Source of the DNA: Escherichia coli
Lineage (GTDB): Bacteria > Pseudomonadota > Gammaproteobacteria > Enterobacterales > Enterobacteriaceae
Direction: 5' to 3' (one strand)
Length of the DNA: 64,000 bases
NCBI RefSeq assembly: GCF_002854065.1
Contig: NZ_CP024147.1
In this document: one piece after another, positions 49,708-54,396 of the stretch
Numbering within the stretch: position 1 is the stretch's first letter
How the letters are laid out: each line of letters begins with the position of its first letter
Made by a program: the position numbers and the translations under genes
The notes under the pieces: model-generated
What the model was told of the DNA's origin: nothing
Database searches by the model: none
The model's input: only the letters and a program-made list of their open reading frames with translations

Positions 49708-49803
49708 AGAGCCTCCTGTAGGGTTTTTATTAACAACGGCTTATTCTAATTATTTTGTGATGAGCGGCAGCGCGTGCCGCTCAAATATTACAGTTAATAG
49801 GGT

Positions 49804-52800
49804 TTAGTGAACGTAGTTAAAAATAAAAGGCATCACGGTGGTGAATAATGCCGCTTTCGGCCAGGCCGGATTAATCGCCGTCAATTCAGCGCGAGCAGAT
49901 TCGTATTGCGCAATCTCGCCTAATCCCGCGGCCGCCAGCATCGCCACCATCAGGCATTTTTCTTTATGCTGCTGTTGTAAATCGCCATACAGCGACAACA
50001 AGTCAGGCTGCGAGACGGCAAAGAAATCCGCTTCGATACTGGTTTTCGCCATCTCTTGCGCCCACTGTTTCATTTCACTAAACAGTTGCTGTGCGGTGTG
50101 TTGTTCGCCCAGTAATCGCAGCGCCATTCCTTGCCAGAAGAGGTAATCAACCGGCTGATCGTTGTAATAGCTGTGGATGTTAATGGTGCGATCGCCGGTC
50201 GCCGCCAGATGTAAACAGCGCGTCGCTTCAGTTTCATCGCCCTGGGCTTTGGCGCATATCGCCTGCCAGAACCAGATGTCGTTATCAGTTTGCCCCGGTA
50301 AACGGCCTTCGCTTAAATTCTCCGGATAATGCAGCGCGGCATGAAGCAGTTCGCTGGCCTGCTGCGGCTCTCTGGCATCAAGATGCTGCCAGGCGCGTAA
50401 TAACTGGTTGAGGATAAACTGACTGGTGACCTTCCCTTCCCCGCCTTCCCACGGGTGGAATTTGCGCGTGGCGAGAATGTCCGCCGCTTTGTCTGCCTGC
50501 CCCGTGAGATGCCACAAATTGAGCAGTTCTGCGGTCATGTCGTCGCGTTTCAGCGCAATTTCCAGATTATTTTCCAGACGCGCCAGTCGTTTCTCCGGTG
50601 TGGTTCCACTTAGCTTATCAAGCAAATCCCGTTCGAAAAGCAGACGTGCATCCTGCGGCGCAAGCTGATAAGCATTATCAAGATAACGCGCGGCCAGCTC
50701 ATAATCGTGTTGCTTATTCCACGCATGGATCGCTAACCCGCGCCAGCCGTCGGCAAACTCCGGCGACATCTCTACGCAACGTTGCCATAAGGCAATGGCT
50801 TCGTTGTAGCTACGTTTGTTGTAGTAGAAGCAGGCCAGTAAATGGCGAGCAAACCAGCACTCTTCAATACTCTCCAGCGCCGCCACTTCTTCCAGCGTAT
50901 TCGGGAAACGGACAAACTGCGGGAAGACATCAATGGCTTTTGCGACCAGTTCGCCACGTTCGGCTTTCGGCAGCAAGCTGGCTTGCAGGTAAAGCGGCAG
51001 CGTGCGCTGGCAGTCCAGTGCGTTCAGCATCTCTGCCGCGAGGGTGGGCATTCCCCAGTTAATCAGTTGCCCGGCAGTCATCAGGGCGTTAACGTCGCGT
51101 CCCTGACACAGACCGCGCCACTGCGCGAGAGCTGATTCGCTACGACCATCGAACCAGTTCAGCCACCACAGAGTGGCGTTCAGCGGATGATCGCGCAGCA
51201 GTTTCTCGCGCTGCAAACGCGCGTTGTCCTGACGACCACTTAACACCAGCAGCAGATTATGCAGGCAAAGCACTTCCTGATTGGTTGGGCAGGCGCGAAG
51301 ACTTTGTTGGCAAAAATCCAGACCCGCGTCGAAGTTACCATTACGCGCCGCCAGTCGTGTCAGACCATAATAGCCTCCGGCTTTACTGTTGCCGCTCCAG
51401 ACCGCACGCCAGAAATCCTCTTCGGCTTGTTGATATTGTCCCTGACGTTCGTAAGCACTGGCGCGAATCAAACTGGCCTGTCCGCACTGCGGATTTTTGT
51501 TCAGCGCATGTGCGCGTTTCAGCGCCTGAGTGGCATACGCCACCGCTTGCGGGAAATCTGCGCGGTTATACTCCAGCATCGCCAGCGCCAGATTACAGCG
51601 GTAATCCAGCGGATCCAGCGCCACGCCGCGCAGGTAGTAATCGAACGGTGAACGGCTAGCGTGATGATATTGCTCCAGATGCTGACCGATAAACCAGGCT
51701 TCATCTGTACTGGTAATGTCTTGTGCTGCCAGTGGCGCTTTGGCGACGTCCGGCAACGGCAACTCTTGCGGCTGATGTTCCTGATAACTCAGTACAATAT
51801 TGCCGTCGGCATCGGAGAGCTCAATGGTCAGCCTTTCAGGATTGATACCGTGCAACACGCCCTGGATGGCGGTCGCAGGCATCAGTGCCACGGCATCATC
51901 AAGTAACGCGTTGCATTTGCCGATTTCGCGGATCGCCAGGCGGTATCCGTTCAACGGAGAGATGGCATACAACCCCCACTCAATCCCCCGCTCACTACGC
52001 TGGAGTTTTATCACCGCATCGCGGGAGGCATTTTGCACCATGCCCAAAGAATGATAAGGCAGGAAATACTGCTCAAAACGCTTCTCTTCGTAAGCATCAA
52101 GCCAGGTAAAATCGGGCTGGTTATCGGCAAAAATACCGGTCATCAGTTCGATATACGGGCCGTTATTATCAGTTAGGCTCTTATCCCACGCCTGGCCAAA
52201 TTCACTGTGTCCCCAGCTCCACTGCTTTTTACCTGGCGCAATATGGTGGTTGGCAACGTGTAGCAAACCGCCATCTTCATCGTGACACCACGCGCCAACA
52301 AAATCGTACTGTGATTTTTCAGCCATATATGAGGTTGGAACGGGCACATTTTTATAGCGAGAAATGTCCACTCCAGCGGAGTAGTCCACTTTGTAGTAAG
52401 TGCCGGTGGCGATAGGGAAAGCGGAGACGGCCCGTTTGCCGTGATCAAACACCGCCGTTACATCCGGCGGGAAGACGCTCTGATGCCCTTCCCCCCCTTT
52501 CACTGCCGGGTTGGCCCACCACAAGAAATGACGCGGCGTGGCGTTGCCGTTATAGACGCGGCTGGCGATTTCCAGCGCCGCCCGGTCAGGGCGCAGGGTG
52601 AAACCTGTCATCACCTGTAAACCATGCATCGGCTCCGTTTCGCCTACCCACACCGTCTGTGCGCCGTCTTCATGGGCTTCGAGGGTGAAATCAACGGGCA
52701 TAAAGGTGGTCGGGCGATGGTGTTGCGGCCAGTTAAACTCAATCCCGCCGGAGATCCACGGTCCCAGCAGCCCCACCAGCGCAGGTTTAATGACTTCATT

Positions 52801-53085
52801 GTGATAGACAAAATCGCGCTGTTTCACTTTATCCCATGCGCGATGCACCCGACCGCCCAATTCCGGCAGGATCATCACTTTGATGTAGTCGTTTTCCAGC
52901 CACACCGCCTGCCAGGATTTCAGGGTTTTCTGCTCGCTCAGCGTATCGGTCACGCCGTAGGGATAAACCGCGCCGGACGATCCCTGATAAACGCGATTTT
53001 CCAGGAACATGGGATGTATATCCTGCGGCCCGGTTTCATAGGTCGGGATCTCAACGCGCTCTTGCCACACTTTTACTGGAGTCAT
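49804..53085 (-). CDS. yphG: Large cytoplasmic TPR-repeat protein YphG
   Basis: ORF track frame 49804-53178 opens on TTG (1124 codons); first ATG (53083-53085) has a GAGGG SD and gives 1093 aa starting MTPVKVWQER; K-12 annotation may use the longer form (uncertain). C-terminal half is rich in TPR-like helical repeats. Confidence 0.8.
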   Translation of the reverse strand: MTPVKVWQERVEIPTYETGPQDIHPMFLENRVYQGSSGAVYPYGVTDTLSEQKTLKSWQAVWLENDYIKVMILPELGGRVHRAWDKVKQRDFVYHNEVIKPALVGLLGPWISGGIEFNWPQHHRPTTFMPVDFTLEAHEDGAQTVWVGETEPMHGLQVMTGFTLRPDRAALEIASRVYNGNATPRHFLWWANPAVKGGEGHQSVFPPDVTAVFDHGKRAVSAFPIATGTYYKVDYSAGVDISRYKNVPVPTSYMAEKSQYDFVGAWCHDEDGGLLHVANHHIAPGKKQWSWGHSEFGQAWDKSLTDNNGPYIELMTGIFADNQPDFTWLDAYEEKRFEQYFLPYHSLGMVQNASRDAVIKLQRSERGIEWGLYAISPLNGYRLAIREIGKCNALLDDAVALMPATAIQGVLHGINPERLTIELSDADGNIVLSYQEHQPQELPLPDVAKAPLAAQDITSTDEAWFIGQHLEQYHHASRSPFDYYLRGVALDPLDYRCNLALAMLEYNRADFPQAVAYATQALKRAHALNKNPQCGQASLIRASAYERQGQYQQAEEDFWRAVWSGNSKAGGYYGLTRLAARNGNFDAGLDFCQQSLRACPTNQEVLCLHNLLLVLSGRQDNARLQREKLLRDHPLNATLWWLNWFDGRSESALAQWRGLCQGRDVNALMTAGQLINWGMPTLAAEMLNALDCQRTLPLYLQASLLPKAERGELVAKAIDVFPQFVRFPNTLEEVAALESIEECWFARHLLACFYYNKRSYNEAIALWQRCVEMSPEFADGWRGLAIHAWNKQHDYELAARYLDNAYQLAPQDARLLFERDLLDKLSGTTPEKRLARLENNLEIALKRDDMTAELLNLWHLTGQADKAADILATRKFHPWEGGEGKVTSQFILNQLLRAWQHLDAREPQQASELLHAALHYPENLSEGRLPGQTDNDIWFWQAICAKAQGDETEATRCLHLAATGDRTINIHSYYNDQPVDYLFWQGMALRLLGEQHTAQQLFSEMKQWAQEMAKTSIEADFFAVSQPDLLSLYGDLQQQHKEKCLMVAMLAAAGLGEIAQYESARAELTAINPAWPKAALFTTVMPFIFNYVH

Positions 53086-53202
53086 GGTGCCCTCAATATT
53101 AACAAGACATACTGAATTAAAAGATTTGTGGCAGTGTATTGAACAATCTGGCAATGTTTTCGCGGAATAATCACGCAATTAACTAAACAAGGTTTAGTGA
53201 AG

Positions 53203-54396
53203 ATGAGAGCCTGCATTAACAATCAACAGATTCGCCACCATAACAAATGCGTGATTCTGGAACTGCTGTACCGGCAAAAGCGCGCCAATAAATCAACGCT
53301 GGCCCGGCTGGCGCAAATTTCGATTCCGGCAGTCAGTAATATTTTGCAGGAACTGGAAAGCGAAAAACGGGTGGTGAATATCGACGATGAAAGCCAGACG
53401 CGCGGGCATAGTAGCGGTACATGGCTGATTGCGCCGGAAGGTGACTGGACGCTGTGTCTGAACGTGACGCCCACCAGTATTGAGTGTCAGGTTGCTAATG
53501 CTTGTTTAAGTCCGAAAGGTGAATTTGAGTATTTACAGATTGATGCACCGACGCCGCAGGCGCTGCTGTCCGAAATCGAAAAATGCTGGCATCGCCACCG
53601 TGAATTGTGGCCGGACCGCACCATCAATCTGGCGCTGGCAATCCACGGTCAGGTTGATCCTGTGACCGGAGTGTCGCAAACCATGCCGCAAGCGCCCTGG
53701 ACAACGCCGGTTGAGGTGAAGTATCTGCTGGAAGAGAAGCTCGGCATTCGGGTGATGGTCGATAATGACTGCGTGATGCTGGCGCTGGCGGAAAAATGGC
53801 AAAATAATTCGCAGGAACGGGATTTCTGCGTGATCAACGTTGATTACGGCATTGGCTCGTCGTTCGTGATTAACGAGCAAATTTATCGCGGCAGTTTGTA
53901 TGGTAGCGGACAGATTGGTCACACCATCGTTAATCCGGATGGCGTCGTCTGCGACTGTGGACGTTACGGCTGCCTGGAAACCGTCGCCTCGTTAAGTGCA
54001 TTAAAAAAACAGGCGCGGGTATGGCTAAAATCACAACCGGTTAATACTCAGCTTGATCCTGAAAAACTGACAACCGCGCAGTTAATCGCTGCCTGGCAGA
54101 GTGGAGAACCGTGGATCACCAGCTGGGTTGACCGCAGTGCCAATGCCATTGGTTTGAGTCTGTATAACTTCCTCAACATCCTCAATATTAATCAGATTTG
54201 GGTGTACGGTCGCAGTTGTGCCTTTGGTGAGAACTGGCTTAATACTATTATTCGCCAGACAGGATTTAACCCGTTCGACCGCGACGAAGGACCGAGCGTG
54301 AAAGCGACGCAAATTGGCTTCGGGCAATTAAGCCGCGCACAACAGGTGCTGGGAATTGGCTATTTGTATGTTGAGGCGCAGTTACGACAGATTTGA
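53203..54396 (+). CDS. yphH: ROK-family (NagC/Mlc-like) transcriptional regulator YphH
   Basis: ORF track frame 53197-54396 opens on GTG; first ATG at 53203 (397 aa); N-terminal HTH; ROK zinc motif CDCGRYGCLE. Confidence 0.88.
   Translation: MRACINNQQIRHHNKCVILELLYRQKRANKSTLARLAQISIPAVSNILQELESEKRVVNIDDESQTRGHSSGTWLIAPEGDWTLCLNVTPTSIECQVANACLSPKGEFEYLQIDAPTPQALLSEIEKCWHRHRELWPDRTINLALAIHGQVDPVTGVSQTMPQAPWTTPVEVKYLLEEKLGIRVMVDNDCVMLALAEKWQNNSQERDFCVINVDYGIGSSFVINEQIYRGSLYGSGQIGHTIVNPDGVVCDCGRYGCLETVASLSALKKQARVWLKSQPVNTQLDPEKLTTAQLIAAWQSGEPWITSWVDRSANAIGLSLYNFLNILNINQIWVYGRSCAFGENWLNTIIRQTGFNPFDRDEGPSVKATQIGFGQLSRAQQVLGIGYLYVEAQLRQI

Follow-up and report, generated by a model that had tools for sequence, protein, structure and literature searches.

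The DNA analysed here (the window, 64,000 nucleotides) comes from Escherichia coli O157:H7 and contains the divergent genes yphG and yphH. The yphG coding sequence (49804..53085, minus strand; exact RefSeq/PGAP coordinates) encodes a protein of 1093 aa with a DUF5107 domain and TPR repeats, and yphH (53203..54396, plus strand; RefSeq annotation) encodes a ROK-family, NagC/Mlc-like regulator of 397 aa. Both begin at the first ATG of their frames (cat at 53083-53085 on the minus strand for yphG, ATG at 53203-53205 for yphH), leaving a gap of 117 bp (53086-53202). The longest open frames reach further upstream: that of yphG (49804..53178, minus strand) opens on TTG (caa, 53176-53178) immediately after an in-frame TAA (53181-53179), and that of yphH (53197..54396, plus strand) opens on GTG, which reduces the gap to 18 bp (53179-53196). 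A preliminary description of the locus had reported both pairs of starts, both spacers and a GAGGG Shine-Dalgarno before ATG 53085, all with correct coordinates and codons, and had preferred the ATG/ATG pair, a reading strongly backed by annotation and comparative sequence. Both upstream extensions are unremarkable. The 31 codons added to yphG would be stop-free by chance with a probability of (61/64)^31 = 0.23 under uniform codon frequencies, or in about one gene in 4-5, and the extension of yphH upstream of its ATG amounts to 2 codons only (V-K-M).

The ATG starts are already known, in that current databases use them. In E. coli K-12 MG1655 (RefSeq NC_000913.3), yphG measures 3282 nt and yphH 1194 nt; PGAP gives the same lengths in O157 PV15-279, MGY and AR62.2, and UniProt YPHG_ECOLI is the 1093-aa K-12 protein. 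Both RefSeq proteins (NP_417044.4 for YphG, and NP_417045.4) are short forms in their fourth version, which is consistent with a past revision, and b2549 was listed as 3282 nt already in a 2012 supplementary table (Kim 2012). In a collection of 15 billion proteins, the 1124-aa form of K-12 YphG occurred in a single GenBank record (EFI89599.1) and the O157 long form was absent. The earlier suggestion that databases might list YphG in its long form is thus essentially outdated. Searchable supplements yielded no experimental start-site evidence for either gene (transcription start, N-terminal peptide or initiation ribosome profiling): by gene name, b-number and coordinate prefix, those of Nakahigashi 2016 (translation starts), Ettwiller 2016 and Yan 2018 had no entry for this locus, and the transcription-start supplements of Kim 2012 matched only in the gene-length table. 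For yphG, yphH, the yph operon and DUF5107, published work likewise gave neither functional nor start-site data; YphH figures there only as a ROK repressor that is uncharacterised. Expression of the two genes in standard media is probably nil.

The 117-bp spacer is conserved non-coding control DNA, with a length of 109-119 bp in 18 species. In a spread sample of E. coli, 34 of 40 records were 100% identical across 53070-53215, and most E. coli genomes were 95-99% identical over the surrounding 901 bp. The spacer contains both Shine-Dalgarno sites and, immediately before the yphH ATG, a 23-bp pseudo-palindrome, and would also include weak promoters. No sigma-70 consensus promoter (9 or more of the 12 positions of TTGACA/TATAAT at 16-18-bp spacing) was found in 52900-53400, and a relaxed scan of the spacer gave low-confidence candidates only, partly conserved. 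For yphH, the candidate occupies 53140..53168 on the plus strand, with a putative -35 TGAACA (53140-53145), 17 bp and a degenerate -10 CGGAAT (53163-53168); in five relatives, the element aligned to it (TGGACA, 17 bp, CACAAT) reaches 8-9 of 12. For yphG, a similarly tentative -10, TACACT (53133..53138, minus strand; TAnACT in relatives), lies within a conserved cAGTnTA block with no recognisable -35, and passes the relaxed scan in 4 species only. Downstream of the yphH candidate, a near-invariant box, TCACGCAAT (53171..53179, plus strand), is conserved in 18 of 18 species from Escherichia to Aeromonas and is possibly the yphH promoter or start-site region. A terminator scan at the spacer gave no match. 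Two elements picked out by eye were rejected: a sigma-54-like TGGCA(A/C)-N5-T(C/T)GC at about 53149-53163, whose spacing and GG are not kept in R1(2018), ENT03, Budvicia or Aeromonas, and a CRP site near TCACG (53171-53175), which has no acceptable left half-site in any species.

The pseudo-palindrome, here O(H), lies at 53179..53201 and reads TTAACTAAAC-AAG-GTTTAGTGAA, covering the yphH Shine-Dalgarno, including the GTG of the longest yphH frame and adjoining TTG 53178. It is conserved in 18 species; the consensus TACAGTAAACGAGGTTTAGTGAA, also written TACAGTAAAC-GAG-GTTTAGTGAA, is symmetric at 16 of 20 arm positions and holds from Escherichia to Aeromonas. We scanned the 64-kb window and about 7 kb per species (18 genomes, local loci) with a matrix built from yphH-proximal sites only, revealing a second strong copy, O(F) (TACAGTTAATAGGGTTTAGTGAA, 49789..49811), at the yphG/yphF junction; this copy takes in bases of the yphG stop codon and is centred 93 bp before the yphF ATG. 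O(F) was the top match in the whole window (32.5 bits; next unrelated match, 13.2). Its position also carries a site in E. albertii, R1(2018) and Budvicia diplopodorum, with a weak one in BIGb0383. The matrix further detected copies in Enterobacter sp. ENT03 and Citrobacter sp. FP75, where an MFS_2 sugar transporter gene beside yphH has the motif centred 123 bp before its ATG. A weak and doubtful third copy may be present at 53095..53117, adjoining the yphG Shine-Dalgarno at a distance of 84-85 bp from O(H). In 13 of 18 species the strongest secondary match falls here with equal spacing, but the E. coli sequence scores poorly, ranking 6175 of 127,956 when the window was scanned.

The 23-bp motif is probably the operator of YphH, which is predicted from sequence to bind it and would either repress or activate from there. 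We lean, by a modest degree, towards a carbohydrate-linked YphH regulon built around YphG, with the operator at the yphH start, at the yphG/yphF junction and, elsewhere, at an MFS sugar transporter gene. It is unlikely that the conserved block of 23-33 nt upstream of yphH is no protein operator and works as RNA within the yphH leader (forming a hairpin that hides the Shine-Dalgarno) or is just the core promoter. The position of the block does suit a leader or a transcription start, and in E. coli, E. albertii and ENT03 it can fold into a hairpin whose stem has 7-10 bp and whose loop and stem include the Shine-Dalgarno. As a conserved structure, however, this hairpin was rejected: its folding energy is no better than that of shuffled sequences (z=0.15), the arms change without compensation in other genera, and an Rfam scan of 52900-53400 gave no match. 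The motif also recurs upstream of yphF and of the MFS transporter gene, where it would not belong to a yphH leader.

YphH matches Pfam ROK (PF00480; E=1.1e-32), placing it among the ROK regulators, and its N-terminal wHTH gives weak MarR/HTH_24 matches (residues 18-56) below the curated cut-offs; the Mlc profile aligns over residues 10-336 with 108.6 bits, well short of the 530 required by its equivalog cut-off. The pair very probably combines a catabolic/transport operon on the yphG side with the gene of a ROK-family regulator. NagC and Mlc operators are AT-rich with a CG-rich centre. The candidate YphH operator, a pseudo-palindrome of 23 bp, has the length of these operators, but its core, AGTAAAC-N3-GTTTAGT, is not known to resemble them in sequence, and it is not classed here as a NagC/Mlc site. 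PMC4288165 counts YphH, itself uncharacterised, as a third ROK repressor in E. coli, and gives its group RG, GK or GP in place of the conserved GR linker motif. NagC operators are defined to positions +/-11, and those of nagE and nagB act together through cooperative binding with DNA looping (PMC4288165). Like NagC at the divergent nagE-nagBACD genes, yphH adjoins sugar genes presumably under its control, with more than one candidate site in the cluster; unlike NagC, the strong yphH- and yphF-proximal sites lie 3.4 kb apart, and the partner spaced at 85 bp is weak. The arrangement also resembles the Thermotogae ROK regulons inferred by comparative genomics (Kazanov et al., as cited in PMC4288165), in that a regulator-adjacent palindrome recurs across species upstream of linked sugar transport or catabolic genes; the YphH motif is predicted here from sequence alone, at local loci of 18 genomes. 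The transporters that it precedes are non-orthologous, being the ABC system YphFED in E. coli and MFS_2 in ENT03 and FP75.

Conservation around the yphH start points to ATG 53203, which is present in 17 of 18 species and replaced at the same place by GTG in Budvicia aquatica. Across the 18 species, a purine-rich Shine-Dalgarno (GGAG, GAGG or AAGG) is followed by TTTAGT(G/A)AA and then ATG, so that in relatives GGAG stands 9 nt before the ATG. In the window, the Shine-Dalgarno is AAGG (53189..53192, plus strand; GGAG/GAGG in relatives), with a pairing energy of -3.3 kcal/mol and, in the duplex calculation, a spacer of 8 nt to ATG 53203 versus 2 nt to GTG 53197. The rejected GTG (53197..53199, plus strand) falls in the right arm of the conserved palindrome. 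Four of the 8 non-Escherichia relatives in the alignment (RIT691, BIGb0383 and both Budvicia species) have lost 1 nt at 53200, which shifts the GTG out of frame, and in R1(2018) and ENT03 it has become GTT or GTA. That Escherichia yphH is translated partly or wholly from this GTG, giving a protein with two extra residues (MKMRAC...), is very improbable: E. coli and E. albertii do have the codon in frame, with the AAGG upstream of it as of the ATG, but its spacing from the Shine-Dalgarno is only 2 nt against 8 nt for the ATG, most relatives lack the codon or its frame while keeping the ATG, its presence is accounted for by the palindrome arm, and all annotations use the ATG. Translation of yphH from ATG 53203 is therefore strongly supported by the comparative record.

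For yphG, an alignment of orthologue N termini had been proposed as a check, and it bore out the first ATG: similarity begins at residues 1-7 of short YphG in 80 homologous loci from Proteobacteria, Bacteroidota and Bacillota, with the conserved motif VKVWxExxxIPTY just after its onset, an upstream stop within 10 codons of the start in most of these loci, and an N-terminal extension matching long YphG in none of the 80. YphG belongs to Pfam DUF5107 (PF17128; E=1.5e-55; 188.8 bits, with the gathering score at 24.4), and the match spans residues 39-324 in short-form numbering and 70-355 in long-form numbering. The ATG is kept in 18 of 18 loci with a divergent yphH, and CAT 53083-53085 is invariant in a 10-sequence alignment of the closest relatives. 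On the minus strand, ccctc at 53090..53094 reads GAGGG, the yphG Shine-Dalgarno, followed by CACC (4 nt) and the ATG; CCCTC is conserved in the closest relatives, and other genera carry an equivalent CTCC or CCTC box in the same place. Pairing with the 16S rRNA tail reaches -6.1 kcal/mol before ATG 53085 versus +1.0 kcal/mol before TTG 53178, a duplex energy that reveals no ribosome-binding site for the TTG.

The 31-codon stretch itself (53086..53178, minus strand) is non-coding control DNA. Its frame is interrupted by stops in BIGb0383, ENT03 and both Budvicia species, lacks any start codon in R1(2018), and is shifted among near relatives by 1-2-nt indels at about 53088 and 53118-53119, so an open frame with a start codon is not maintained across these orthologues. 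Variable sites fall on its three codon positions as 13/14/10 (p=0.7), against 22/12/69 in the yphG coding sequence (p=2e-12) and 25/17/89 in that of yphH (p=3e-16); the third-position bias of coding-type substitution is thus missing from the extension and present in both coding flanks. In AR62.2, an IS1 lies inside the stretch, yet yphG is still annotated there at 3282 nt. A genuine long YphG of 1124 aa, started at TTG 53178 with a 31-residue N-terminal extension, is the least probable of the readings and in practice refuted by the comparative data: its frame is open from 53178, the corresponding frame in E. albertii and RIT691 is likewise open and has an NTG at the matching position, and the one GenBank record carries the 1124-aa form, but against these stand the missing Shine-Dalgarno, the disrupted frames, the lack of a codon-position signature, the absence of the extension from homologues, a DUF5107 domain that starts about 35 residues after Met32, the IS1 insertion and the short form in all curated databases. 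Translation of yphG from ATG 53085, with TTG 53178 not used, is likewise strongly supported.

Together, these results make it very probable that yphG and yphH are an ordinary divergent pair with first-ATG starts, separated by 117 bp of control DNA that most likely contains a YphH operator. TTG 53178 and GTG 53197 would then be merely the first NTG codons after chance in-frame stops. There is no live start ambiguity at this pair, only a longest-ORF artefact. The preliminary description had reached the ATG/ATG pair by arguing that 18 bp is too short for two divergent promoters; that conclusion stands, but the argument by itself is not decisive, because promoters can sit within the coding sequence of a neighbouring gene, and the ATG/ATG conclusion rests on conservation instead. 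The pair shows no difference from longest-ORF over-extensions corrected in curated K-12 annotation (RefSeq NC_000913.3, UniProt, PGAP): as in those cases, an upstream in-frame NTG without a Shine-Dalgarno or conservation produces a spurious N-terminal extension, and the real start is a conserved ATG with a Shine-Dalgarno.

The start-codon question carries little weight in itself, with comparative evidence independently confirming the curated ATG starts, and longest-ORF calls are unsuitable for this locus. If the operator reading is true, the rejected TTG and GTG 'starts' mark the edges of a real element. This by-product is of modest value: for yphG, yphH and yphBCDEF, which are unstudied E. 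coli genes, a testable sequence with two to three predicted sites may offer a route to the YphH regulon and its inducing sugar.

The yphG and yphH genes are divergently oriented, and the frame of each can be read from two starts. The minus-strand ORF (49804..53178) opens with TTG 53178, directly after an in-frame TAA, and the plus-strand ORF (53197..54396) opens with GTG 53197, leaving 18 bp between them; the first ATGs, at 53085 (minus strand, reading TTGAGGGCACCATG) and 53203 (plus strand), are 117 bp apart. The preliminary description preferred the two ATGs and the 117-bp spacer, and in this it was right, with annotation and comparative evidence in agreement and every coordinate matching the sequence and the ORF list. 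These starts are already standard annotation and nothing new: PGAP begins yphG and yphH exactly at both ATGs in O157:H7 PV15-279 and the K-12 derivative MGY, as does the curated reference NC_000913.3 (yphG, NP_417044.4, 3282 nt, 1093 aa; yphH, NP_417045.4, 1194 nt, 397 aa), and as early as 2012 a supplementary table had b2549 at 3282 nt and b2550 at 1194 nt. By exact-sequence look-up, the name YPHG_ECOLI belongs to the 1093-aa K-12 protein, a 1124-aa K-12 form occurs in a single GenBank record (EFI89599.1) and the O157 long form is absent from the protein collection. The concern that database entries may carry the long YphG is therefore largely obsolete. The start-site papers and supplements searched contained no data on transcription starts, translation starts or peptides for either gene.

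The window is 100% identical to E. coli O157:H7, and the locus was found in 5425 of 5426 complete E. coli genomes. Scanning one genome per species yielded 80 loci encoding YphG relatives, at which each match was extended upstream in frame. Whatever the phylum, similarity sets in at residues 1-7 of the short form, shortly before a conserved VKVWxExxxIPTY, with a start codon within a few codons of this onset and, in most loci, an in-frame stop no more than 10 codons upstream; these homologue N termini bear out the short start. Upstream of the match start, a subset of the Bacteroidota DUF5107 homologues (loci L026, L036, L045, L056, L060, L077 and L083) has a short conserved N-terminal extension of its own, M-E-K-I-T-A-Y-L-I-x-S-T-V-N/E, which the enterobacterial proteins lack.

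The region matching the 31-codon E. coli extension (53086-53178) is not kept among the closest relatives: in Enterobacter sp. BIGb0383 a 1-nt insertion lies beside the ATG and stops occur in the region, R1(2018) lacks a start codon there, and stops interrupt it in ENT03 and both Budvicia species, with 1-2-nt deletions at 53118-53119 in Budvicia as well. These relatives all have the CAT at 53083-53085, and the CCCTC Shine-Dalgarno is likewise conserved. Counted by codon position across eight close relatives, variable sites number 22/12/69 (p=2e-12) and 25/17/89 (p=3e-16) within codons 2-100 of yphG and yphH, respectively, versus 13/14/10 (p=0.7) in the extension. The 16S rRNA tail pairs at -6.1 kcal/mol before ATG 53085 and at +1.0 kcal/mol before TTG 53178, and the Pfam DUF5107 domain begins about 35 residues past Met32. 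The long YphG is rejected on homologue N termini, stops and indels, codon-position pattern, pairing energy and domain onset taken together. In E. coli SCPM-O-B-8794 (L005 2379-4811), the yphG frame has a premature stop at about codon 810, reflecting either a natural pseudogene or an assembly error.

The two candidate yphH starts lie only two codons apart (V-K-M), and comparative sequence evidence places the start at ATG 53203. A divergent yphH orthologue is kept at 18 of the 80 loci, and 17 of these 18 species share the ATG, Budvicia aquatica having GTG at the same position. Among the eight non-Escherichia relatives aligned at the DNA level, four have lost 1 nt at 53200, which puts GTG 53197 out of frame, and R1(2018) and ENT03 have GTT or GTA in its place. 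Ahead of the ATG the species share a purine-rich Shine-Dalgarno (GGAG, GAGG or AAGG) and then TTTAGT(G/A)AA; by duplex calculation, the E. coli Shine-Dalgarno is spaced 8 nt from the ATG versus 2 nt from the GTG. Escherichia could conceivably make minor use of the GTG, which would add only two residues.

The spacer itself does not behave as neutral sequence: 18 species from Escherichia to Aeromonas keep it at 109-119 bp, and 34 of 40 E. coli genomes sampled for spread are 100% identical over 53070-53215, against just 95-99% for most E. coli genomes across the 901 bp around it. Most conserved are TCACGCAAT (53171-53179), near-invariant from Escherichia to Aeromonas, and the 23-bp pseudo-palindrome just downstream; the box is possibly the yphH start-site or discriminator region, or the site of another protein. 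A consensus promoter scan found none in the spacer, and a relaxed, conservation-aware scan gave two weak, low-confidence candidates: TGAACA, 17 bp, CGGAAT for yphH (53140-53168, plus strand), which in five relatives takes the better form TGGACA, 17 bp, CACAAT, and a TAnACT -10 without a -35 for yphG (53138-53133, minus strand). Both would tentatively put transcription starts inside the stretch read as coding by the long yphG frame. A sigma-54-like TGGCAA-TGTTT-TCGC (53149-53163, plus strand) is unconserved beyond the Escherichia clade, with TTGC instead in one E. coli strain, and is probably due to chance. The locus had no Rfam match and no significant RNA structure.

Insertions also occur here. 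E. coli AR62.2 (L084 2288-2985) has an IS1 in the spacer, within the rejected extension, with yphG annotated at full short length. In XJ5.2 (L085 2289-2986), an IS1 lies directly between a 5'-truncated yphH and hcaD, and the yphA-yphG genes are missing from this location, which fits an IS1-associated deletion. The yphG and yphF leaders share TTGTTAATA (53095-53103 and 49728-49736, minus strand) shortly upstream of their Shine-Dalgarno sites, and the yphG block is strongly conserved among close relatives.

The palindrome, TTAACTAAAC-AAG-GTTTAGTGAA in E. coli (53179-53201), precedes yphH as a conserved element in 18 species, with the consensus TACAGTAAACGAGGTTTAGTGAA (TACAGTAAAC-GAG-GTTTAGTGAA arms), and ends 0-5 nt before the yphH ATG. 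The apparent alternative starts fall at this element: GTG 53197 is part of its right arm, and TTG 53178 lies one base beyond its left edge. With a position matrix built from the 18 yphH-proximal copies only, the top match in the 64-kb window was 49789-49811 (TACAGTTAATAGGGTTTAGTGAA; 32.5 bits, versus 13.2 bits for the next unrelated match), which overlaps the yphG stop codon and whose center lies 93 bp ahead of the yphF ATG. Outside the motif, the DNA flanking one copy matches that flanking the other only at scattered bases, so the pair does not look like part of a longer duplication. This junction site scores 30.6 in E. albertii, 25.3 in R1(2018) and 19.3 in Budvicia diplopodorum, and is weak in BIGb0383 (12.6). 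Nearby, between yphG and yphF, 49762-49782 forms a perfect 8-bp GC-rich stem-loop (GAGCGGCA-GCGCG-TGCCGCTC) that may be a REP-like or mRNA-stabilizing element; a canonical terminator is ruled out by the missing T-run on either strand.

Immediately past yphH in two other genera, in Enterobacter sp. ENT03 and Citrobacter sp. FP75, there is an MFS_2 sugar transporter gene, and further copies of about 21 bits (L009:1488-1510 and L018:1625-1647) are centered 123 bp before its ATG. A palindrome of operator length, beside a ROK gene and upstream of non-orthologous transporter genes across genera, is the classic signature of a local regulator's operator, and we infer that YphH likely binds it as its operator. 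NagC/Mlc operators, delimited at positions +/-11 (PMC4288165), have the same 23-bp length. A possible third copy, weak and with a poor score in E. coli, adjoins the Shine-Dalgarno of yphG; in 13 of 18 species it is 84-85 bp away from the yphH-proximal site. NagC-like looping is therefore only a possibility. YphH has been described only as an uncharacterized ROK/NagC-family factor (PMC4288165, PMC9308461), and its candidate operator is a separate, modestly interesting lead.
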